From an uncultured Planctomycetia bacterium (GTDB taxonomy: Bacteria; Omnitrophota; Gorgyraeia; Duberdicusellales; 4484-171), in the NCBI GenBank assembly GCA_964536865.1, contig CAZHYN010000007.1, forward strand, positions 1 through 32,000: a DNA stretch of 32,000 nucleotides, given 5' to 3'. Both the position numbers and the translations under genes were made by a program. Below are positions 10,549 to 20,333 of this stretch, piece by piece (position 1 is the first letter of the stretch; each line of letters opens with the position of its first letter). The notes under the pieces were generated by a model. That model made no database searches, was not told where the DNA came from, and worked only from the letters and a program-made list of their open reading frames with translations.

Positions 10549-11238
10549 ATGCAAGAAAATCCTTCAAATAACAAAAAATTTCCTCCGTTTTCTCCATTAG
10601 ATATAAAAAGGTTAGAAAACACCTTCTTTGATGAGTCTAAAAAAAGCAAAAAGCGGAAGCCTCTGCCCAACCTCCTTAAGTATCTAATTATCATAGGCCT
10701 TTTAGGAGGAGGATATTTTTTGTTTTCTCGGTATACTCTTGTTATCGTTCCTAAAATTAAACATCCCACCAAGAGTCTCTTGAGCAATAAGTTATTAAAT
10801 TCTATAAATCTTCTAAGCAAGGAGAAAAAAATTAAGTTTTCACAAGGGATAATTTATCTACCTCTTTTCCCTAAGAAAAATGAGGGATTTATCCTCAACA
10901 CAAAAACCTTCGTAGATCTTAATAAATATAATTTAGAGATAATAATAAGCTTCATAGATAAAGAAATAAAGAATAATAACTTAACTCTCTCAGTAGTAGT
11001 AAGAGACAAAAAGTATTTTTCCAATGCCTTAACTCCTTTAGAAGTAGTGCTAGGAAACAATAATTCCTCTTATCATCATTCTTTTCTAAAAATTATCATT
11101 GATTTTAAACAAATCGAATTTCCTCTCCTTAATCTCTCTCAAATAAATCAAATTAGATTTTCTTTCTATAATTATAGAGAAAAACCTATCTCTCTTCTAA
11201 TAAAAGATATAGTTTTGGCAGAAAAGGGGGCAAGATGA
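10549..11238 (+). CDS. Single-pass membrane protein, function unknown (basic cytoplasmic N-tail, about 150-aa external domain)
   Basis: 229 aa. N-terminal 42 residues end in KKSKKRK, followed by TM LLKYLIIIGLLGGGYFLF and then a beta-rich, Asn/Ile/Lys-rich region. Its stop overlaps the ParA-like start (ATGA at 11235-11238). No family recognised. Confidence 0.6.
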   Translation: MQENPSNNKKFPPFSPLDIKRLENTFFDESKKSKKRKPLPNLLKYLIIIGLLGGGYFLFSRYTLVIVPKIKHPTKSLLSNKLLNSINLLSKEKKIKFSQGIIYLPLFPKKNEGFILNTKTFVDLNKYNLEIIISFIDKEIKNNNLTLSVVVRDKKYFSNALTPLEVVLGNNNSSYHHSFLKIIIDFKQIEFPLLNLSQINQIRFSFYNYREKPISLLIKDIVLAEKGAR

Positions 11239-12257
11239 AGGTAATTTCTATTTTAAATCAAAAAGGCGGATGTAGTAAAACCACCACTGCAGTAAACCTA
11301 TCCTGTGCTTTAGCTAAGAATAACTATCCTACTTTAGTAATAGACTTTGACCCTCAAGCACATACTACTTTTTCTCTAGGTATATCTTCTACTAAAGGAG
11401 TATATGAAGTGGTAGAGAACTTTCTTGCTCAAAAAAATATTCAGTGGGAAGAGTATATCGTAAAAAGAGATGAAAATTTATCTGTTCTTCCTGCTAGTAT
11501 TGGATTAACCTCTATGGAGCACAAATTAGCTGAAAGGGAAGATAAGTTATTTATTCTCTATAAGATACTTAACTCTTTTCCTCTTCCTTATCAGTATTGC
11601 ATAGTTGACTGCCCTCCTAACTTAGGACTTCTCTCTCTAAATGCCTTAGTGGGAGCAAATTTTCTTATTATTCCTTTCACAGTATGTGATCTATCTCTAC
11701 AGGGAGTTATTATATTGAATCAAATCATAGATATGATGAGAAAAAATTTTCCTATTCATCATGATATTTTTTATCTTTTAACCCAGTATAATCGACGCTT
11801 CCATCATTCTAAACAATTCTTAGAAAAAGTAAGAAACATCTTAAAGGATAAACTTCTTAAAACTGTGATTCGCACTAACGTAGCTTTGAAAGAAGCTTCG
11901 TCTTTAGGGAAAAGCATTTTTGAACATAAACCCCGCTCCCGAGGAGCGTGTGACTATCAGAATCTTGCTCAAGAGATAATAAACTTAACACAAGAAGTTG
12001 AATGGGCAAATTTCTTTTTTAAAGGAAGTAACTTTAGAGAAATCTATGTAGTGGGTGATTTTAATAAATGGCAAAAAGACGAAAAATTTCGAATGAAAAA
12101 AATAGATTGGGAAACCTGGTCAATAAGTGTCCCCTTAAGGAAAGGAAAATATCACTATAAGTTTTTTGCTGATCAAACCTGGTTAAAAGACCCTTTCAAC
12201 GTTCATGAAGAAGATGATTCTTTTGGAGGAAAAAATTCTGTGTTAGTCATAAAATAA
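11235..12257 (+). CDS. ParA/Soj-family P-loop ATPase fused to a C-terminal CBM48 / AMPK-beta glycogen-binding-like domain
   Basis: 340 aa. Residues 1-250 have the deviant Walker A NQKGGCSKTT, then VIDFDPQ and Walker B IVDCPPNL, and are Soj-like throughout. Residues about 256-340 (nt 12000-12254) read REIYVVGDFNKW...GKYHYKFFADQTWLKDPFN...GGKNSVLVIK. This aligns with the AMPK beta GBD (EVYLSGSFNNW...HQYKFFVDGQWTHDP...NNIIQV). Confidence 0.8.
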   Translation: MKVISILNQKGGCSKTTTAVNLSCALAKNNYPTLVIDFDPQAHTTFSLGISSTKGVYEVVENFLAQKNIQWEEYIVKRDENLSVLPASIGLTSMEHKLAEREDKLFILYKILNSFPLPYQYCIVDCPPNLGLLSLNALVGANFLIIPFTVCDLSLQGVIILNQIIDMMRKNFPIHHDIFYLLTQYNRRFHHSKQFLEKVRNILKDKLLKTVIRTNVALKEASSLGKSIFEHKPRSRGACDYQNLAQEIINLTQEVEWANFFFKGSNFREIYVVGDFNKWQKDEKFRMKKIDWETWSISVPLRKGKYHYKFFADQTWLKDPFNVHEEDDSFGGKNSVLVIK

Positions 12258-12470
12258 GCTACTTCTCCTTATCCAATTTATTTCTATAAATTCCAGCGAG
12301 CAGAATTACCTAATGCCCAAAAAGGAAGCAAGGAAATTAAACCCAAAATTTGCATTAGAAAATACATAAACATTTCTATCTATTCAAATCCATAGAGTTA
12401 TGTGATAACTCTTTGAACCAAAAAAGTACAATACAAATCACAGCCCATTTTTAATGGGCTGGACCTTCGG

Positions 12471-12574
12471 CAGCCCTAATTTTACGAAGGAAGCAAATTT
12501 ATTATATTAGGAGTTTGTTATATAGTCTGTTTATTTTATTCAAAAAATCAATGGTTCCAGTAAAATTAGGGCTG
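12471..12574. repeat. Perfect 15-bp inverted repeat flanking a 74-bp AT-rich core
   Basis: cagccctaattttac (12471-12485) is the exact reverse complement of gtaaaattagggctg (12560-12574). The right arm overlaps the 5' half of the 12568-12589 hairpin. Confidence 0.85.
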
Positions 12575-12598
12575 GGTTAACCCAGCCCTTTATTTCTA
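12568..12598 (+). terminator. Candidate intrinsic terminator (palindromic, could act on either strand)
   Basis: Perfect 9-bp GC-rich stem agggctggg/cccagccct with a ttaa loop (12568-12589), followed by ttatttct. It lies 311 nt after the ParA-like stop. Confidence 0.5.
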
Positions 12599-12624
12599 CG
12601 AATGAATTTCTTCTTATGAAGAAT

Positions 12625-12666
12625 AAAGGGCTGCCCTTTGGGCGGATTTTGCTAATGCAAAATCCG
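12625..12666 (-). terminator. Candidate terminator hairpins downstream of the ACT-domain gene
   Basis: 10-bp perfect stem cggattttgc/gcaaaatccg (12643-12666) starts 19 nt after the ACT gene stop. It is followed on the minus strand by a second hairpin AAAGGG-CAG-CCCTTT (12639-12625) and then ATTCTTCAT. The U-tract is weak. Confidence 0.4.
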
Positions 12667-12684
12667 GGTTAAATCTCATCTAAT

Positions 12685-13083
12685 CTATGCCGAAAGAAGA
12701 TCTACCACTTTCTCATTGTTATCTGAGGAAAAAACAAGTATAGCATTCTCTTGAGGAGCAGCAGTTGTTCCATAGATATAATTTAGATCGATTCCAGCAT
12801 TTTTTATCTTAGAAGCGAAATTATAGAGCTCACCTACCTTATCAGGAAGTTCAACAATCACTACTTCTTTTTTCTCTAAACTATAGTTGTTTGCCTCAAG
12901 AATCTCTTTAGTCTTTGTATTATCTGAGGTAACAATTCTAAAAAAAGCTTTATTATCCACTACATAAGCACAGATAGCACGGATATTTACCCCACTTTCC
13001 GAGATTGATTTACAGATCTCCTCAAGCAAACCTACCTTGTTAGGAGCAGTTAGAAAAATTTCTTCACCTTTTACCACTTTCAT
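12685..13083 (-). CDS. Stand-alone tandem ACT-domain protein
   Basis: 132 aa. Two beta-alpha-beta-beta-alpha-beta repeats, each opening with the ACT-type DxxG/NKxG pattern (APNKVGLLEEI... and LPDKVGELYNF...). AGGAGG SD upstream. Confidence 0.7.
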   Translation of the reverse strand: MKVVKGEEIFLTAPNKVGLLEEICKSISESGVNIRAICAYVVDNKAFFRIVTSDNTKTKEILEANNYSLEKKEVVIVELPDKVGELYNFASKIKNAGIDLNYIYGTTAAPQENAILVFSSDNNEKVVDLLSA

Positions 13084-13163
13084 CTCTCACCTCCTTACTA
13101 TGCCTATCATGAGGCTCTCTTTGCTACAGACAAGTCACTTTTTCTTGTTACCCTTCCTCTTCC

Positions 13164-13463
13164 TTAAATATCTAAGAATTTTTTTGCTTCTTTTCGAGAT
13201 AAAGCTCTTTTAAAATCATCAAAATCTATAAGTTGGAACTGGGGGTTCTCCTTTTTAAGCTTGTCTATTAAAGAGGGATGAACTTTTCTTCTAAATCCTA
13301 TATACCTAAATTGAGTGTGGCAATTAGGACATTCCTTTAGGGGAAGCTTTAATCCTATCTTATGACAAGAGAAACACTCTCCCGATAATTCACCTAACAC
13401 AAAGAGGTGTTTTTCTATATCATCCAAATCTAAAAACTCCCATACTCTCAAGAAACTCTTCAT
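13164..13463 (-). CDS. Small zinc-ribbon protein, function unknown
   Basis: 99 aa. CFSCH...(13 aa)...CPNCH four-ligand motif. Its start overlaps the LOG gene stop (ATGA). No family recognised. Confidence 0.55.
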   Translation of the reverse strand: MKSFLRVWEFLDLDDIEKHLFVLGELSGECFSCHKIGLKLPLKECPNCHTQFRYIGFRRKVHPSLIDKLKKENPQFQLIDFDDFKRALSRKEAKKFLDI

Positions 13464-14116
13464 TTCTTTCTGTAGAATTTCCTTATGGCTTTTAAAACCT
13501 CTTGAGGAGTATCAACAACTTCAAAGAGAGATAAGTCTTTTTTTACGATTGTCCGTTCTTTTAATAAAGTGTTCTTAAGCCAAGTTAACATACCTTTCCA
13601 GTAGTTACTGACTACTAAAATTATAGGAAAGGGATTTATGCGATGAGTCTGAACTAATGCTAAAGCTTCAAAAAGTTCATCTAAAGTTCCATACCCTCCA
13701 GGAAAAACTACAAAAGCTCGAGAGTACTTTGCAAATAATACCTTCCTCACAAAGAAATACTTAAACTCTAAGAGGTAGTTAACGTAACGGTTGGGGACCT
13801 GCTGTTCAGGAATAAGGATATTTAAACCAATAGATTTACCTTTTGCGTGATAAGCTCCTTTATTAGCTGCCTCCATAATTCCTGGACCTGCACCGGTAAT
13901 TATACTATAACCATTTCTGACTAAAAATCTTGCACATCGGTAAGCAAGCTTATAATAAGGGTGAGCAGAAGTCACTCTTTTGGAGCCAAAGAAAGATACT
14001 GCTTTTTTTATACGAGAAAGCCCTTCAAAACCCTCTACAAACTCACTCATTATACGGAATATGCGCCAGGTATCTTGTTTAATAAAATTATTACCGAAAT
14101 TAATTTTGTTATCCAT
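13460..14116 (-). CDS. LOG-family (TIGR00730, lysine-decarboxylase-like) nucleotide N-glycosidase
   Basis: 218 aa. TGAGPGIMEAANKGA and PGGYGTLDELFE signature motifs. Confidence 0.85.
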   Translation of the reverse strand: MDNKINFGNNFIKQDTWRIFRIMSEFVEGFEGLSRIKKAVSFFGSKRVTSAHPYYKLAYRCARFLVRNGYSIITGAGPGIMEAANKGAYHAKGKSIGLNILIPEQQVPNRYVNYLLEFKYFFVRKVLFAKYSRAFVVFPGGYGTLDELFEALALVQTHRINPFPIILVVSNYWKGMLTWLKNTLLKERTIVKKDLSLFEVVDTPQEVLKAIRKFYRKK

Positions 14117-14118
14117 CT

Positions 14119-14448
14119 TTAGATTACTAACTTCTCTGCAATATCGGTTACTATAGGAATTTTACACAACTTGCCAGTTAAAGCAGAGTAGATACCGTAG
14201 AGAGAAAGAGCCAAAAAGATAATCATTCCTAAAACATAGAATATCCCTCCAATCAGAGGAATAAGAGAAAGTACAGCGAAAATAACCTCTCCTATAAAGA
14301 TTACTAAACCATGCTTAGCATGGTAGTGGGTAAAACGGTTGTCTTTCTTTATGAGAAAAGCCAAAATCCATAAAAAAAATACATAAGAAAGTGCAGCTAA
14401 GCCTGCTCCTTCTTTAATCTCTTCTAAACTTAAATCTTCTTTATTCAT
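14119..14448 (-). CDS. Small membrane protein, DUF4870-like
   Basis: 109 aa. Three hydrophobic helices with the conserved-looking KDNRFTHYHAKHGL segment between TM1 and TM2. It ends 2 nt before the LOG start. Confidence 0.6.
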   Translation of the reverse strand: MNKEDLSLEEIKEGAGLAALSYVFFLWILAFLIKKDNRFTHYHAKHGLVIFIGEVIFAVLSLIPLIGGIFYVLGMIIFLALSLYGIYSALTGKLCKIPIVTDIAEKLVI

Positions 14449-14502
14449 CCTTAACCTCCTTCAAACCTCATTTATATTATAGACAATTTACAGTTGATAA
14501 CA

Positions 14503-14540
14503 ATAAAAAATTACCCCCTGGCCTTTAAGAAGCCAGGGGG
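14503..14540 (-). terminator. Rho-independent terminator of the OMP gene
   Basis: Minus strand reads a 9-12 bp GC-rich stem (TTA)CCCCCTGGC-ttcttaaag-GCCAGGGGG(TAA) followed by TTTTTTATT. It starts 22 nt after the stop at 14563. Confidence 0.85.
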
Positions 14541-14562
14541 TAATTAGTTAGCTTGTTAATCC

Positions 14563-15852
14563 TTAGAAGGTAATCTTCATTTTTCCAATGACCTGGGAAG
14601 CACTATCGTCGTTGGAGCTGTTAAAAGCATCGCCAGGATTAAAATAGCCATACATTAGGCTGAATTGAACATCTTCAGTGTAGTTGTAAGTAAGATGTAA
14701 ATCTATTTCGTTACCTAAATCTTTCTCAGAATCCATAGTGTAACCATCCCAGGAATCAGTGACAGAATCAGTATCATTAGAGAGAGTGCTTACCTTACCT
14801 ACCAACCTTAAGTTAGCATAGCGTAAGCTTAAAGAGATATCATCGGTAAGGTCAGCACCTAAATTTACGCATATTGCTTGATAGTTAGAATTCTTAAATA
14901 GAGCATTGGCAATATCGGCAGGAGTAATTTCCTCATACATCGGGTCCCACTTATCACTTATTCTGATGTAGTCTAAACCTATGCTCATAGGAACCCAGGT
15001 ATCAGTAAGTTTGTAAGTTGCGCCAGCTAAAATTGCTAAATCACTGCTATGTTTATCGGTTCGGGGAGCAGAAGAAAATCCAACATTAGCGTATCTCTGA
15101 TACTGATAAGCTATCTCTCCGGTTAAGGTTAAATTCTCAACAGGAGAAGAAACTACTCTTACACCTATGTTACCAATATCTGCCTTTTTCCTGTCGTCGA
15201 GGATGTAGTAAAGCTCAGCGCTGGTAGTTTCGTCAACTTCATAGTTGGCATCTAAAATGTAAATATCTCTATCATCATTTTTGTACTCATCACCTTCTGA
15301 CTTCTTAATTAATCCTAAATTAACCACTAAAGGAGAATAATCTAAAGTTGCCATTATCCCTTCAAATGTCTTTGCTCCACAGAGATCAGAAAAAGCAGTT
15401 CCTGCAAAATTAGAAGCTCCTTTATAGTTGGTGTTAGGGTCAGCAATAATTAGACCACTTCCTATCTTTACTCCCTGCTTACCAATCTTTAAGGTAAGAG
15501 GATAGTCAAGGAAGTTTTTCAAGGTAATCCATAACCCTCCTAAGAGTATATTACCACTTCCGGTAGAGGTTCCTGAGGCACTAGTTCCTCCACTCCATAT
15601 TCTCTCATGGAAAAGCACAGTATTTGCTGATACATCTTCAGTTAAATCAGCACTGATAGAGAGTTTAAGGATAGATGCCAGGGCACTGGCATCGTAATCA
15701 GTTGCTCCTCCAGCGCCTAGATCAAAATCACTGCGGGAAAGGGCATACATATCAATCTTCCCGCCCACTTTAACATTCTCTACAGCAGCAAAAGCAGTAC
15801 CGAGAAAAGATACTGCTAAGATTGCTGCTAAAACAGTCAATTTCTTACTCAT
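14563..15852 (-). CDS. Outer-membrane beta-barrel protein (porin-like), family not recognised
   Basis: 429 aa. Sec signal MSKKLTVLAAILAVSFLGTAFA/AV. Composition rich in G/S/T/D/N/Y with alternating hydrophobic patterns and a C-terminal ...GKMKITF (terminal Phe). AAGGAGG SD, its own promoter region and its own terminator. Confidence 0.75.
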   Translation of the reverse strand: MSKKLTVLAAILAVSFLGTAFAAVENVKVGGKIDMYALSRSDFDLGAGGATDYDASALASILKLSISADLTEDVSANTVLFHERIWSGGTSASGTSTGSGNILLGGLWITLKNFLDYPLTLKIGKQGVKIGSGLIIADPNTNYKGASNFAGTAFSDLCGAKTFEGIMATLDYSPLVVNLGLIKKSEGDEYKNDDRDIYILDANYEVDETTSAELYYILDDRKKADIGNIGVRVVSSPVENLTLTGEIAYQYQRYANVGFSSAPRTDKHSSDLAILAGATYKLTDTWVPMSIGLDYIRISDKWDPMYEEITPADIANALFKNSNYQAICVNLGADLTDDISLSLRYANLRLVGKVSTLSNDTDSVTDSWDGYTMDSEKDLGNEIDLHLTYNYTEDVQFSLMYGYFNPGDAFNSSNDDSASQVIGKMKITF

Positions 15853-16067
15853 TCTCAGCCTCCTTTCTCAAAGTTTTTATTTATCTCTAACAAGGGTTAA
15901 ATCCTTGCTAATATCTTGCCTCATCTATGTTATATCATCCACTTCTTCAACAATCTCTTAGGAATTTTTTGAATTATTTTATAGACTCACCTCCTTTCCT
16001 CCTGGATTGAGATTGTTTGTGGATGGTATAACCTTTCTGTAAACGTTTTCAAAGAACTCACTATTCT

Positions 16068-16096
16068 TTTTTAGCAAATAATTATTTAGTTGTCAA
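16068..16096 (-). promoter_or_regulatory. Candidate distal promoter of the OMP gene
   Basis: Minus strand reads TTGACA (16096-16091), a 17-nt spacer, then TAAAAA (16073-16068). The -10 lacks the final T. An alternative extended -10, TGaTATAAC, lies at 15937-15929. Confidence 0.3.
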
Positions 16097-16235
16097 GATT
16101 TTTTTACCTTTTTCTTCCCATAAATTGTTATCATTATTTTTAAAAACCCTATATATTGTGTCCAAATTTAACAACTAAGTTTTTATCCTAATTTTTACTA
16201 TTTTTCTTATCCTTTTTGTGATATTTTTACTTCTC

Positions 16236-16308
16236 TGCCCCCAGCCCGATTCGAACGGGCCCACCAGGCTTAGGAGGCCTGTGCTCTATCCTCTTAAGCT
16301 ATGGGGGC
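16236..16308 (-). tRNA. tRNA-Arg (anticodon CCU)
   Basis: The reverse complement folds as GCCCCCA/TA/GCTT-AAGAGGATA-GAGC/A/CAGGC-CTCCTAA-GCCTG/GTGG/GCCCG-TTCGAAT-CGGGC/TGGGGGC/A. CCA is not encoded. It starts 9 nt after the apt stop. Confidence 0.92.
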
Positions 16309-16317
16309 AAAGATAAT

Positions 16318-16830
16318 TCAGAACTTTATTAATGAGTAAACAGGATAAGGTTTAAGTTTTCTTCTTCCTCTTAGAGAAAGGAGCTCAATGAGAAAAACTA
16401 TACCTGCTATTTTACCTCTCAATTTCCTTACTAACTTTACAATAGCATGAGCTGTACCACCGGTAGCTAGAAGGTCATCCACTATTAAAATTTTCGCTCC
16501 TTTAGGAAAAGCATCACGATGAATACAAAAACTATCTTTTCCATACTCCAGCCCGTAACTCACCTTATAACTCTTATAGGGGAGTTTACCTGGCTTTCTT
16601 ACAGGAACAAACCCACACCCCAATTTATAAGCTAGAGCTCCTCCTAAGATGAATCCTCTAGCTTCAGCACAGACGATATAGTCTATCTTCTTATCTTTAA
16701 ATAGGTTAGCCAGACGATCGATAGTTATTTTAAATGCTTTCCTGTTATTAAGAAGGGTGGTTATATCTCTAAAGAGAATACCTTTTTTAGGAAAATCAGG
16801 AATAGTCCTTATAAGATTTTTCAGGTCCAA
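16318..16830 (-). CDS. apt: Adenine phosphoribosyltransferase
   Basis: 170 aa. IPDFPKKGILFRDIT N-terminus and PRPP-binding motif ILIVDDLLATGGTA. Confidence 0.95.
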   Translation of the reverse strand: MDLKNLIRTIPDFPKKGILFRDITTLLNNRKAFKITIDRLANLFKDKKIDYIVCAEARGFILGGALAYKLGCGFVPVRKPGKLPYKSYKVSYGLEYGKDSFCIHRDAFPKGAKILIVDDLLATGGTAHAIVKLVRKLRGKIAGIVFLIELLSLRGRRKLKPYPVYSLIKF

Positions 16831-16847
16831 CTTTACCTCCTTAAAAC

Positions 16848-17669
16848 TTAAAATACTATCTCTTTCTTCTGTTCCTGAGAGACATACTTCCTTAACTTCT
16901 TTATCGCTACCTCTTCAATCTGCCTCACTCTCTCTCGAGAGACTCCAAGTTCCTTAGCTACCTCAGCTAAGGTATGTGATTTTCCATCAGTTATCCCAAA
17001 CCTTAAGTCTAAAACTCTCTTCTCTCTATCGCTGATAACATCTAAAAGATGAGCAACTTCTTCACGTAAGAAAAAACTTTCTATTTCTTTCTCTGTATCA
17101 GCATATCCTGTAGCCTTAATGAAATCTCCTAACTGAGAATCTCCTTCTTCCCCCACAGGAGCTTCCAGAGAAGTCTTCTTCGTCATCCATCTCTCTAATT
17201 GTGCAATTTTCTCTATAGAAAGCTTCATCTTTTTAGCTAACTCTGAAGGAGCAGGTTCTCTCTTCATTTTTTGACGCAATTGCTCCTTTTTTTTCTTATA
17301 CTTAGAAATTAACTCACTCATATATACGGGTATCCTTATAGTTTTACCCTGATCAATTAAAGCACGAGTTATTGCCTGCCTTATCCACCAAGCAGCGTAA
17401 GTAGAAAACCTGTAACCTTTTTTTAAACTAAACTTATCGATGGCTTTCATTAACCCAATATTTCCTTCAGCAATCAAATCCATAAGAGGTAAACCTAGAT
17501 GGATATAATGTTTGGCAATATTTACTACCAATTTTAAGTTAGAGTTTATTAATTTCCTTCGTGCATGTTTATTCCCCTTTTTAGCTTTCCTTATCAACTC
17601 CTCTTCTTCCTTTTTAGAAAGTAAAGGAATATCTTTTATCCTCTCTAAGTAAGCCTTAATTGCATCCAT
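16848..17669 (-). CDS. RNA polymerase sigma-70 family factor, RpoD/RpoS-like (regions 1.2-4.2, no region 1.1 or NCR)
   Basis: 273 aa. Region 2, DLIAEGNIGLMKAIDKF...YRFSTYAAWWIRQAITRA...TIRIPVYM, is nearly identical in pattern to RpoD. Region 4.2 reads TLAEVAKELGVSRERVRQIE. Confidence 0.9.
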   Translation of the reverse strand: MDAIKAYLERIKDIPLLSKKEEEELIRKAKKGNKHARRKLINSNLKLVVNIAKHYIHLGLPLMDLIAEGNIGLMKAIDKFSLKKGYRFSTYAAWWIRQAITRALIDQGKTIRIPVYMSELISKYKKKKEQLRQKMKREPAPSELAKKMKLSIEKIAQLERWMTKKTSLEAPVGEEGDSQLGDFIKATGYADTEKEIESFFLREEVAHLLDVISDREKRVLDLRFGITDGKSHTLAEVAKELGVSRERVRQIEEVAIKKLRKYVSQEQKKEIVF

Positions 17670-17675
17670 AAATAA

Positions 17676-20333
17676 TCATTTTCTTTTTTTCCTTTTTCTT
17701 ATCTTTCTCTTCCCCAAAGCTGCCTGAGCAGCAGCTAACCTAGCTATAGGAACTCTAAATGGAGAACAACTCACATAGCTTAAGCCGATTCGATGACAAA
17801 ACCTTACTGACTGGGGATCGCCTCCTTGCTCACCGCATATCCCTACTTTTAAACCTTTTCTTGTCTTTCTTCCTAAGTTTACTGCCATCTCCATAAGCTT
17901 GCCTACCCCTGTCTCATCTACAGACACAAAAGGGTCGTAAGGTAAAAGTTTATTCTCTAAATAAATTTTTAAGAATCTCCCTGCATCGTCACGGGAAAAA
18001 CCAAATGTCATCTGAGTAAGATCATTGGTACCAAAAGAAAAGAACTCCGCATAGGAAGCAATCTCATCAGCAGTTAGAGCAGCACGAGGAACTTCTACCA
18101 TTGTACCTACAGTGTAGTTTAATTTTACCTTGTAGTTCCTACTTACTTCCTTAGCTACCTCATCAATATAATTTTTAGTAATTATAATCTCGTTAACATG
18201 ACCTACTAAGGGAACCATGACTTCTGGTTTTACTTTAATCCTCTCCTCCTTTATAAGGTAAGCTGCTGCTTCAAATATTGATTGAGCCTGCATCTTTACA
18301 ATCTCAGGATAAACCACTCCTAACCTACAACCTCTAAATCCTAACATAGGATTAAATTCGTGTAGACTAGTTACTGTATCTTTTATCTTCTGAGGGGAAA
18401 TACCAATTTTCTCAGAAAGTTGTTCTATCTCTTCATCAGTTTTAGGAAGGAATTCATGAAGAGGAGGATCAAGTAGCCTTATAGTTACCGGATATCCTTT
18501 CATTACCTTAAATATCTCCTTAAAATCTTCTCTTTGAAGAGGAAGGAGTTCTTTTAAAGCTTTTTCTCTCTCCTCTTTGTTTTCAGAAAGAATCATCTTC
18601 TGCATTTTAGGAAGTCTATCCTTACCAAAGAACATATGCTCTGTTCGACATAAACCTATACCTTCAGCACCAAAATCGCGAGCAATTTTAGCATCGTGAG
18701 GTGTATCAGCATTAGTCCTTACCCCCAACTTTCTTATTTGATCAGCCCATTTCATCAACTGAGCAAACTCTCCAGATAATTTAGGCTCAACTAACTTTAC
18801 CTTTTCTAAAAATACTTCTCCTGTAGAACCATCAATACTTATAACTTGACCTTTCTTTATCAGATTATTTTTTACCTTAAAATATCCCTCTCCTTCATTA
18901 ACGATAACTTCAGAACATCCTACTACACAAGGCTTCCCCATTCCTCTTCCCACTACCGCAGCATGGCTAGTCAATCCTCCTGTAGAAGTAAGGATACCGC
19001 AAGAAGCTGCCATCCCTCCTACATCTTCAGGGGAAGTCTCTTTTCTTACCAAGATCACCTTTTTTCCTTTTTCTGCTTCTTTAACTGCTTCCTCAGCAGT
19101 AAAAACAACCTCTCCTACAGCTGCTCCAGGAGAAGCAGCTAACCCTTTAGCTACAGGCATAGGCTTAGAGGAAGGATCTATTGTAGGATGAAGAAGCTGA
19201 TCTAAAGAGTGAGGATCAACTCTTTTTACTGCCTCTTCTTTAGTGATTAAACCTTCTTTAACCATATCCACAGCAATTCTTACACTAGCTTGAGCAGTCC
19301 TTTTACCCGTTCTTGTCTGAAGAAGGTAAAGCGTGCCTTTCTCAATAGTAAATTCTAAATCTTGCATCTCCTTAAAGTGCTTCTCCAGCTTATTTTGAAT
19401 TTTATATAACTGATCATATATCTTAGGCATAGTATTTTTAAGCTCCTCTATACTTTGAGGGGTCCTAATTCCTGCTACCACGTCTTCACCTTGAGCATTC
19501 ATTAAAAATTCTCCGTAGAATCTCCTCTCTCCTGTAGAAGGATTTCTGGTAAATGCCACGCCTGTGCCAGAATCAGGGCCCATATTTCCAAATACCATAG
19601 CTTGTACATTTACCGCTGTTCCTAAGGTATGAGGGATTTTATTTAAATTCCGGTAAGTTATCGCTCGAGGATTATTCCAAGACTCGAAAACTGCCAGAAT
19701 AGCCATCTTAAGTTGTTTCCATACATCTTGAGGAAAATCATAACCCATTGTTTTTTTAAAGAGTTGTTTAAACTCTTGTGCAATATCCTTCCAATCACTG
19801 GCATCTAACTCTATATCTAATCTTACATTTTTCTCTTCCTTCTTCTTCTCAATTATCTTCTCAAATTTATCCTTTTCTATCTTTAAAACTACATCTGAAA
19901 ACATCTGAATAAATCGGCGGTAAGCATCAAATACAAACCGTTCATCCTTAGTTTGAGTAATTAACCCTTTAATAGTAGTGTCATTTAAACCTAAATTAAG
20001 AATTGTATCCATCATTCCCGGCATAGAAATCGCTGCACCACTCCTTACAGAAACTAAAAGAGGATTATCTTTTGAACCAAATTTTTTACCCATTGCTTCT
20101 TCAATCTTTTTCATATACTTTTTAACTTCCTCAAAAAAACCTGAGGGGAACTTTTTGTTATTCTTATAGTAGTAAGTGCACATTTGGGTAGAAATCGTAA
20201 ATCCTGCAGGCACAGGGATACCTAAATTAGTCATCTCAGCAAGATTCGCTCCCTTACCTCCTAAGATATCCCTCATCCTGGCGTTCCCTTCTGCTTTCCC
20301 TTTACCGAAGAAGTAAATATATTTTTTTGCCAT
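17676..20333 (-). CDS. ppdK: Pyruvate, phosphate dikinase
   Basis: 885 aa. ATP-grasp N-terminus (GGKGANLAEM), phosphohistidine swivel GGLTSHAAVVGRGMGKPCV, and PEP/pyruvate TIM barrel (GLCRTEHMF, FSFGTNDLTQ, CGEQGGDP). Confidence 0.95.
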   Translation of the reverse strand: MAKKYIYFFGKGKAEGNARMRDILGGKGANLAEMTNLGIPVPAGFTISTQMCTYYYKNNKKFPSGFFEEVKKYMKKIEEAMGKKFGSKDNPLLVSVRSGAAISMPGMMDTILNLGLNDTTIKGLITQTKDERFVFDAYRRFIQMFSDVVLKIEKDKFEKIIEKKKEEKNVRLDIELDASDWKDIAQEFKQLFKKTMGYDFPQDVWKQLKMAILAVFESWNNPRAITYRNLNKIPHTLGTAVNVQAMVFGNMGPDSGTGVAFTRNPSTGERRFYGEFLMNAQGEDVVAGIRTPQSIEELKNTMPKIYDQLYKIQNKLEKHFKEMQDLEFTIEKGTLYLLQTRTGKRTAQASVRIAVDMVKEGLITKEEAVKRVDPHSLDQLLHPTIDPSSKPMPVAKGLAASPGAAVGEVVFTAEEAVKEAEKGKKVILVRKETSPEDVGGMAASCGILTSTGGLTSHAAVVGRGMGKPCVVGCSEVIVNEGEGYFKVKNNLIKKGQVISIDGSTGEVFLEKVKLVEPKLSGEFAQLMKWADQIRKLGVRTNADTPHDAKIARDFGAEGIGLCRTEHMFFGKDRLPKMQKMILSENKEEREKALKELLPLQREDFKEIFKVMKGYPVTIRLLDPPLHEFLPKTDEEIEQLSEKIGISPQKIKDTVTSLHEFNPMLGFRGCRLGVVYPEIVKMQAQSIFEAAAYLIKEERIKVKPEVMVPLVGHVNEIIITKNYIDEVAKEVSRNYKVKLNYTVGTMVEVPRAALTADEIASYAEFFSFGTNDLTQMTFGFSRDDAGRFLKIYLENKLLPYDPFVSVDETGVGKLMEMAVNLGRKTRKGLKVGICGEQGGDPQSVRFCHRIGLSYVSCSPFRVPIARLAAAQAALGKRKIRKRKKRK

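Follow-up and report, generated by a model that had tools for sequence, protein, structure and literature searches.

A Soj-like ParA ATPase fused to a predicted CBM48 module and paired with a membrane protein in Omnitrophota: a candidate system for positioning glycogen particles

The ParA-type ATPases of the carboxysome-positioning McdA/McdB system and of the PomXYZ, ParC/ParP and PpfA systems serve a non-DNA cytoplasmic cargo together with a partner that is encoded alongside and whose N-terminal peptide probably mediates its action, the adaptor or activator being located on the cargo and the ATPase lacking a cargo domain. In the polysaccharide-related BcsQ/BcsR system, too, a ParA/MinD-family ATPase works at the membrane together with a small partner, and BcsQ constitutes a precedent for such a protein in polysaccharide secretion. 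Storage-polymer granules are tethered to the nucleoid by PhaM/PhaF. The carbohydrate-binding modules (CBMs) of family 48 are known from AMPK beta, from GH13 enzymes and from the plant proteins PTST/LSF1, and plant CBM48 proteins target other proteins to starch granules (PMC4339375). Here we describe a gene pair that combines elements of these systems, found in a 32,000-nucleotide stretch of an uncultured Omnitrophota bacterium (contig CAZHYN010000007.1, positions 1 to 32,000; hereafter the window) and consisting of a gene for a 229-residue membrane protein (10549..11238, + strand) and a gene for a 340-residue fusion of a Soj-like ParA ATPase with a predicted CBM48 (11235..12257, +).

The fusion is closest to the chromosomal ParA/Soj proteins (1wcv/2bek, 6iub, 8ray), with which it shares the ATPase fold and length (target-normalised TM-score 0.85-0.94), the deviant Walker A with its signature lysine, the D-x-D motif, Walker B, part of the patch for non-specific DNA and an adjoining gene whose product has a ParB-like N-terminal peptide. 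It differs from them by the extra C-terminal CBM48, by an invariant Walker A cysteine, by two DNA-patch residues that are shifted in this copy, and by having no adjoining ParB/parS but a membrane protein with a periplasmic domain as its partner. Whereas McdA/McdB and the related systems keep the activator on the cargo, the fusion carries the cargo module itself and the activator candidate sits on the membrane, and whereas their cargo is a protein assembly, that of the fusion would be a polysaccharide. The module belongs to the same domain family as those of AMPK beta, GH13 enzymes and PTST/LSF1 and has the same sugar-contact residues, but it is mounted on a P-loop ATPase of the positioning kind, where the others sit on a kinase scaffold, a glycoside hydrolase or a coiled coil. 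BcsQ is much less similar to the fusion in sequence and structure than Soj is and has no CBM, while the fusion has no bcs genes beside it and does not reach the curated BcsQ model. PhaM/PhaF, finally, share the proposed outcome, namely storage granules (of PHB/PHA, polyhydroxybutyrate and other polyhydroxyalkanoates) held on a cellular scaffold, but are unrelated non-ATPase proteins acting on a different polymer.

We propose, with a probability of about 45%, that the fusion is a ParA-type ATPase which binds cytoplasmic glycogen, is recruited and/or reset by the N-terminal peptide of its membrane partner, and positions, tethers or partitions the glycogen particles. A role in positioning polysaccharide granules had been suggested by an earlier annotation made from the letters of the window alone (the original prediction), and this interpretation is partly supported by the present analysis, the granule function itself being something that we infer.

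The two open reading frames and the ATGA stop/start overlap between them (11235..11238, +) that had been claimed are present, as read directly from the sequence (...GCA AGA TGA / ATG AAG GTA), and the overlap indicates translational coupling; a G-rich Shine-Dalgarno-like run precedes the start of the fusion gene. The ATPase domain (11235..11990, +; residues 1-252) matches the Pfam family AAA_31 over residues 1-171 (E value 1.7e-44, 152 bits) and also CbiA (3.3e-18), and it is indeed the complete Soj-like ParA that was predicted, with the Walker A sequence KGGCSKTT (11262-11285, +; residues 10-17), DFDPQ and DCPP all in place. Among 85 fusion proteins the signature lysine K10 and the Walker A lysine K15 are found in 84, the remaining row being a gap, and D37, D39 and the Walker B residue D125 are found in all. 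These 85 proteins and their loci, on which the counts given below are based, are a top-scoring subset, all from metagenome-assembled genomes (MAGs) with taxon labels as deposited and with heuristically called open reading frames. In the alignment D39 is equivalent to D41 of Helicobacter pylori ParA (HpParA), which positions the hydrolytic water (PMC11229316). By sequence the nearest structures are chromosomal ParA/Soj proteins, led by 8ray (2.8e-37) and followed by the H. pylori and Thermus thermophilus Soj structures at about 1e-30, and the identity of the ATPase domain to the Soj structures is 31-37%. An AlphaFold2 model of the fusion, built with 12 family members, has a predicted local distance difference test score (pLDDT) of 89.9 and a predicted TM-score of 0.77 and consists of a Soj-like domain followed by a beta-sandwich at residues 255-339. 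In Foldseek it superposes on Soj with target-normalised TM-scores of 0.85-0.94 and root-mean-square deviations (rmsd) of 1.5-2.5 A, the best fits being to 2bek/2bej (0.92-0.94, 1.5-1.6 A), while McdA structures fit less well. A further feature of the ATPase domain is the P-loop cysteine (KGGC[GS]KT; Cys13, codon 11271-11273), which is invariant in all 84 aligned fusion proteins and constitutes a family signature at a position that is normally valine in ParA/Soj; it may possibly confer redox sensitivity.

Other members of the superfamily are poor matches. None of the curated NCBIfam models is reached by the fusion, and RepA, ParA_partition, BcsQ and MinD all score far under their cut-offs. The C-terminus is a CBM48 and not the amphipathic targeting helix of MinD, and minD_bact scores 49 against a cut-off of 213; the tyrosine cluster of BY-kinases is absent and TIGR01007 scores 27 against a cut-off of 108; and no McdB or carboxysome genes are found in the window or in the loci of relatives. 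The non-specific DNA patch of Soj consists of R189, K201, R215 and R218 in Bacillus subtilis Soj (BsSoj), equivalent to R182, R194, R208 and R211 in T. thermophilus Soj (PMC6393308). At the corresponding positions the window protein has the basic R188 and R200 and the non-basic T214 and A217, with R213 and K219 adjacent, and within the family R188 is kept in 83/85, K/R200 in 71/85 and K/R217 in 62/85, so that nucleoid binding by the ATPase is plausible as judged from these residues.

The C-terminal module (11997..12254, +; residues 255-340) is a predicted alpha-glucan-binding CBM48 of the AMPK-beta type, a type that binds alpha-1,4/1,6-glucan, and in our reading it is rigidly joined to the ATPase domain. 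In the fusion the AMPK1_CBM model (PF16561) matches residues 268-339 with 40.3 bits against a gathering cut-off of 26.8, and the isolated fragment scores 43.9 bits, while the related model CBM_48 (PF02922) falls just short of its cut-off (20.5 vs 22.4 bits). The isolated C-terminal 90 residues furthermore match the carbohydrate-binding modules of AMPK beta1/beta2 (1z0n, 1.6e-5) and also the LSF1 structure 8j5d. Residues 255-339 form seven or eight strands with pLDDT 86-93 in the AlphaFold2 model, whereas a Foldseek search with the whole model is dominated by the ATPase domain. The original assignment of this region to the AMPK-beta/CBM48 family is in agreement with the profile match, and the residues that had been said to contact sugar are present. 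In the AMPK beta1 module with bound cyclodextrin, W100 and W133 stack on glucose rings, K126 and N150 form hydrogen bonds and L146 enters the ring (PMC9788615). Direct alignment to 1z0n places rat AMPK beta1 W100, K126 and W133 at W279, K309 and W316 of the fusion, and a manual extension past the local alignment, which requires a one-residue insertion in the query, places N150 and L146 at N334 and F330. Both stacking tryptophans are invariant (W279 in 85/85, W316 in 84/84), position 309 is K/R in 75/85 and Q in 9/85, position 334 is N/D in 83/85, of which D accounts for 34/85, and position 330 is aromatic in 68/85.

An exhaustive domain search showed that tandem arrays of the same CBM subtype are attached to GH13 alpha-amylase catalytic domains and to a GH57 enzyme and also occur together with GlgB_N. 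The nearest carriers apart from the ParA fusions are GH13 and GH57 enzymes, as would be expected for a module that binds alpha-glucan, and we conclude that the CBM of the fusion is of the alpha-glucan type and is predicted to bind such a glucan. The tandem carriers (P0244, P0255, P0350, P0378, P0392, P0262 and P0250) hold 3-17 copies of the subtype, and secreted four-copy proteins of about 480 residues with signal peptides as well as giants of 5,000-7,400 residues are found among the CBM48 carriers. A search with the CBM alone ranks by summed score, by which such tandem-repeat proteins swamp the single-domain fusions, and it is thus unusable for estimating the size of the fusion family.

The upstream protein has no match in Pfam or NCBIfam and no database annotation. 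It is predicted to be a bitopic membrane protein with its N-terminus in the cytoplasm, comprising a helix PLDIKRLENTFF (10594..10629, +; residues 16-27) that is a candidate ParA-docking or ATPase-activating peptide, a basic run KKSKKRK (10639..10659, +; residues 31-37) that is predicted to be disordered (at 31-36 in the AlphaFold2 model), a single transmembrane helix (10669..10731, +; residues 41-61) supported by both the hydropathy peak and AlphaFold, and a CBM-like beta-jelly-roll (10795..11223, +; residues 83-225) that is predicted to be periplasmic and is modelled as a beta-sandwich with pLDDT of about 85-95, the model of the whole window copy having a pLDDT of 81.5. Foldseek relates the sandwich to CBM28, CBM11, CBM16, CBM30 and CBM61 (target-normalised TM-score about 0.5, E values 1e-5 to 1e-3), and individual family members exceed the Pfam thresholds for CBM30 (28.5 vs 27) and CBM27 (26.6 vs 20, the copy of locus L020), although the window copy exceeds none.

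This gene is co-conserved with the fusion. All six loci found by exact-protein look-up, in which the ATPase is 40-54% identical, have an unannotated gene of 216-238 codons directly upstream on the same strand, and these six genes are homologous to one another. With a profile hidden Markov model (HMM) the partner was found to adjoin the fusion in 59/85 loci, in 55 of them upstream on the same strand and in four divergently, the median gap to the ATPase gene being 19 nt (48 loci). Eight loci appeared at first to be exceptions, of which four have the divergent partner and one a partner of the c2 type described below. The divergent partner genes (L020:8814-9728, L024:666-1565, L047:2313-3188 and L062:8772-9614, all on the - strand) are from one subclade labelled Planctomycetia or Omnitrophota. 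The partners fall into length classes of about 190, about 230 and 250-300 residues, which all align end to end and share a design in which a short helix at the N-terminus is followed by a run of Lys/Arg, a single transmembrane helix and a beta-rich C-terminal domain. An apparent loss of the partner in the main clade was an artefact of an HMM built from seven sequences and was refuted by aligning all three classes. Searched with a profile of 40 sequences the family comprises at least 142 clusters, every one annotated as hypothetical, compared with five found by a word-indexed search with the partner alone.

The best-conserved element in 40 partners is the helix motif [H/R]-L-x-x-[I/V/T]-[Y/F]-[L/F], with H/R/K at position 21 in 34, L at position 22 in 37, and Y/F at position 26 and L/F/I/M at position 27 in all 40; the window copy reads K-R-L-E-N-T-F-F, of which R-L-E-N-T-F-F are residues 21-27. 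Positions 33-35 are K/R in roughly 27-35/40, depending on the position, and a lysine run beside a transmembrane helix is also predicted by the positive-inside rule. The N-terminal flank of the transmembrane helix is the more positive in 36/40 partners (median charge +5 before and +1 after), which argues for an N-in topology with the C-terminal domain in the periplasm. Only about 40 residues would then face the cytoplasm, namely a helix resembling the N-terminal peptide of ParB followed by the lysine run. The prediction of a single-pass protein with a basic tail peptide thus stands with regard to the transmembrane helix and KKSKKRK, but the conserved element is the helix at residues 21-27 and not KKSKKRK as such. 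Likewise, the suggestion that the protein is a partner or anchor, and that its gene should be conserved in relatives, agrees with its co-occurrence in 59/85 loci, but the CBM-like jelly-roll makes it more than an anchor.

Most non-Omnitrophota loci have no such transmembrane partner, and in at least ten loci an unannotated protein of 260-330 residues is instead encoded after the ATPase gene. No description of this c2-type partner was found. Its N-terminus reads (K)LG[RK]GL-x-[DE]-[VI]-x-x-[FL]-F-L-S, given alternatively as (K)LG[RK]GL.[DE][VI]..F[LI]S, which is the N-terminal signature of the ParB type: HpParA is bound by residues 1-10 of H. pylori ParB (MAKNKVLGRG), of which Leu7 and Arg9 are conserved in ParBs generally (PMC11229316). 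The remainder of the protein resembles a ParA/MinD fold whose Walker A has eroded, although one member still scores for Pfam ParA/AAA_31, and in view of this erosion it looks like a pseudo-ATPase partner. Two unrelated neighbours have a short amphipathic N-terminal peptide with an aromatic-hydrophobic-Ser/Asp end, which suggests that the ATPase family is governed by the N-terminal peptide of its neighbour, and this is the strongest indirect argument for such a control. It may furthermore be that the Omnitrophota helix motif is a derived LGRGL peptide, since L-S-D-V-(S-H)-I-F-L-S-G of the c2 type can be compared with L-A-D-I-Y-F-S-S-G of class 3, a comparison made by inference and not by statistics. 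The c2-type genes include L065:3770-4693, L074:11094-11987, L081:6024-6875, L083:4476-5462, L084:3339-4277 and L077:11128-12045 (all +), and L077 has a c2-type partner though it is labelled Omnitrophota.

An alpha-glucan cargo, which had been suggested from the CBM, is in agreement not only with the GH13 and GH57 kin of the module but also with the cytoplasmic GH57, GH77 and GT35 genes found near the fusion in relatives. The same-strand order in the main clade is Alginate_exp-like barrel, GH57, partner, ParA-CBM48, DUF4870 and a small Lys-rich protein, with operon-like gaps (medians 55, 19 and 6 nt). GH57 is directly upstream in 20 of the 42 partner-bearing loci with enough upstream sequence, all 20 being among the 29 class-2 loci. 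This enzyme begins at its catalytic N-terminus without a signal peptide and is hence cytoplasmic, and its nearest solved relative is a GH57 amylopullulanase (1e-75). In the clade of the window itself, L002 and L003 have three GH57 genes 4-9 kb away, one with a branching-enzyme C-terminal domain and one AmyA-like, with DUF4912 and DUF2934 genes alongside, and in Omnitrophica RBG_13_46_9 (L017:2981-9486, -) the fusion gene converges with a compact set of genes for glycogen catabolism, namely GH77 MalQ (591 bits), GH57 with DUF3536, and a GT35 glycogen phosphorylase (1100 bits).

The fusion architecture is widespread. A word-indexed search gave 677 relatives, of which the best 120 are nearly all 332-379 residues long with both domains, extend down to 36-37% identity, are annotated 'ParA family protein' or 'AAA family ATPase' and, where the source is named, are all from Omnitrophota/Omnitrophica. 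A scan of one genome per species gave 584 relatives, of which the best 80 span residues 1-340 and include MAGs labelled Myxococcota, delta proteobacterium, Thermodesulfobacteriota, Krumholzibacteriota, Auribacter, Margulisiibacteriota, Eisenbacteria, Fibrobacteraceae and Planctomycetia. A one-off or chance fusion is ruled out by the more than 120 clusters with the same architecture and by the 584 species-representative relatives, since the architecture is kept to about 31-37% identity over hundreds of sequences.

Taken as a mechanism, binding of ATP would dimerise the ATPase and thereby bring two CBM48 modules together for a bivalent grip on cytoplasmic glycogen particles. The dimer would in addition hold a second surface, either the nucleoid by way of the partly kept basic patch of Soj, or the membrane by way of the N-terminal peptide of the partner, or both, and this peptide would recruit the ATPase and/or trigger ATP hydrolysis, resetting it to monomers. 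Glycogen particles would in this manner be positioned, tethered or partitioned, probably close to the GH57-type degrading enzyme that is encoded alongside. Since the cargo module belongs to the ATPase and the candidate activator to the membrane, the arrangement is unlike that of the classical ratchet in which the activator is borne by the cargo, and a system that tethers or retains granules at the membrane or nucleoid has the same likelihood as one that actively transports them.

Several observations weigh against this proposal. The membrane-borne activator candidate makes for a poor fit to the classical ParA ratchet, the proposal gives no role to the periplasmic domain of the partner, and two of the four positions of the DNA patch are non-basic in the window copy (T214 and A217), though R213 and K219 might substitute for them. 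No alpha-glucan enzymes were found in 52 kb of this genome, that is the 32-kb window and 10 kb on each side, and the non-Omnitrophota copies have no adjacent glycogen genes. The GH57 block of the relatives furthermore holds PPDK, sigma-70, a phosphoribosyltransferase and a porin as well, and the linkage may accordingly be in part an inherited gene order.

The explanation that survives best beside glycogen positioning is that the fusion is the chromosomal Soj/ParA of the Omnitrophota, acting in segregation and/or control of replication, with the CBM48 as an accessory sensor or anchor that ties the cell cycle to the state of the carbon store, in the way that the CBM of AMPK beta senses glycogen. 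The likeness of the ATPase domain to chromosomal ParA/Soj noted above is in favour of this, as are the near invariance of R188 (equivalent to BsSoj R189), the wide, core-gene-like distribution of the gene in the phylum, the fact that no second canonical ParA was seen in about 1.3 Mb of flanking sequence, and the position of the window copy 2 kb from mnmG/gidA, a classic neighbour of parA. However, the adjacency to mnmG is limited to the clade of the window, a ParB-like gene adjoins the fusion in 0/85 loci, the conserved neighbour being the membrane protein, the parS consensus TGTTTCACGTGAAACA has no match in the window with up to three mismatches, and GC skew gives no origin there. Moreover the sampled flanks represent one genomic region, and a parAB operon may thus still exist elsewhere, so that the fusion may not be the orphan ParA of the original prediction. 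In line with the claim that no known partner is nearby, the open reading frames scanned in the window (at least 90 residues, minus a few antisense overlaps) include no ParB, MinE, MinC or McdB-like gene, and a literature search for ParB in Omnitrophota found nothing. On balance we regard a chromosomal Soj as unlikely.

In a second alternative the ATPase resembles BcsQ in function and, mounted on its membrane partner, localises or regulates a trans-envelope complex for glucan import or export, made up of the periplasmic CBM-like domain of the partner, the DUF4870 protein and the Alginate_exp-like barrel. The block of porin, GH57, partner, ATPase and DUF4870 does recur in 22-30 loci, the periplasmic fold of the partner is of the CBM type, and the Pfam model CBP_BcsQ is matched with 26.9 against a cut-off of 21.3, which is a generic superfamily match. 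The block has however no glycosyltransferase, synthase or transporter, both GH57 and CBM48 are cytoplasmic, and in the clade of the window the porin and DUF4870 genes are unlinked from the pair. NCBIfam BcsQ (TIGR03371) scores 80.5 against a cut-off of 157.85, Foldseek gives an rmsd of about 5 A to BcsQ (6yay, 6ybb) compared with 1.5-2.4 A to Soj, and no bcs genes are found in the window, all of which makes an organiser of this kind decidedly improbable. That the CBM48 has kept its fold but not its sugar binding, acting instead as a protein-protein module, for instance for a glycogen enzyme, with a protein complex as the cargo, finds some favour in the sub-threshold CBM_48 score, in the Q and D variants at positions 309 and 334 and in the non-Omnitrophota copies that are not near glycogen genes, but seems very improbable in view of the invariant stacking tryptophans, the complete AMPK-beta contact set of the window protein, the AMPK1_CBM score well over its cut-off and the amylolytic enzymes that carry the nearest homologous domains.

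Regarding the remainder of the locus, the window is low-GC (about 34%) chromosomal DNA rich in housekeeping genes, including rpsB, tsf, pyrH, frr, lpxB, mnmG, PPDK, a sigma-70 factor, tRNA synthetases, recO and ybeY. The two-gene unit is closed by a bidirectional terminator-like hairpin (12568..12589, no strand assigned; 9-bp stem with 7 GC pairs and T-runs on both strands), one of 13 terminator-like sites found compared with 1.7 expected, which stands between the gene pair and a convergent ACT-domain gene. The 428-nt gap between these convergent genes (12258-12684) has a second GC-rich hairpin at 12441-12461 with related arms (GGGCTG/CAGCCC), and the RNA of 12258-12600 (343 nt) folds better than 100/100 shuffles (z = -3.45). 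The gap has no Rfam match and its longest open reading frames are of at most 29 residues, and the two hairpins are probably terminators or a small repeat element.

Further downstream are genes for a small DUF4870 (MamF/MmsF-like) membrane protein (14119..14448, -; Pfam 21.5 bits, under the cut-off of 25) and an Alginate_exp-like outer-membrane beta-barrel (14563..15852, -; Pfam Alginate_exp 43.7 bits). The DUF4870 protein, which has three transmembrane helices, directly follows the fusion on the same strand in 22 main-clade loci and is displaced to the minus strand in the window, while the Alginate_exp-like genes are found in 30 loci, usually two to four genes upstream of the fusion on the same strand. 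A second small main-clade gene, for a protein with a Lys-rich N-terminal tail and a small beta domain without a Pfam match, is found one or two genes after the fusion in 26 loci and is absent from the window; L041:11169-11936 exemplifies the two small genes. When 12685-20333 of the window is compared with the main clade (L029, L053 and L063, 1-11100), the partner and ATPase genes stand in inverted orientation, with LOG/ACT genes inserted and without GH57, which suggests a local rearrangement around the pair in the lineage of the window. In L054, from one Omnitrophota MAG, a second ParA was considered as a canonical ParAB and rejected, for it is a BY-kinase, encoded by a separate gene in a Wzz/Poly_export exopolysaccharide cluster. 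This cluster (L054:12756-16631; Poly_export, Wzz/GNVR, AAA_22 and the BY-kinase-like gene, then phosphoglucomutase) lies 2-6 kb downstream of the fusion and is probably unrelated to it.

Full-text literature searches gave no description of a ParA tied to CBM48, glycogen or Omnitrophota, which agrees with the earlier impression that no such system had been described, and a 2024 review of ParA/MinD cargos contains no mention of glycogen, polysaccharide or granule (PMC11407121). If the glycogen reading is correct, the pair is probably the first known case of a ParA system devoted to a storage particle made of carbohydrate. More tentatively, the family may represent an undescribed class of ParA/MinD systems with its own CBM48 cargo receptor, a storage polysaccharide as cargo and a cycle that is controlled by a transmembrane protein through its ParB-like peptide. 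Such a class might have swapped its partner in evolution, the Omnitrophota having the membrane protein and other groups a soluble pseudo-ParA that carries the LGRGL peptide. The CBM-like domain of the membrane partner could conceivably report the glycan status of the envelope or periplasm, and the envelope would then be linked across the membrane to the carbon stores of the cytoplasm.

The placement and sharing-out of glycogen, the most widespread carbon store, are essentially unknown in bacteria. If true, the proposal would add a new class of ParA cargo and a design principle in which the motor itself bears the cargo module while the activator belongs to the membrane. The Omnitrophota are a large phylum of which hardly any members have been cultured, and the proposal would provide the first functional handle on one of their core gene pairs, as well as a handle on the other partner family, likewise unannotated, of Myxococcota and related phyla.

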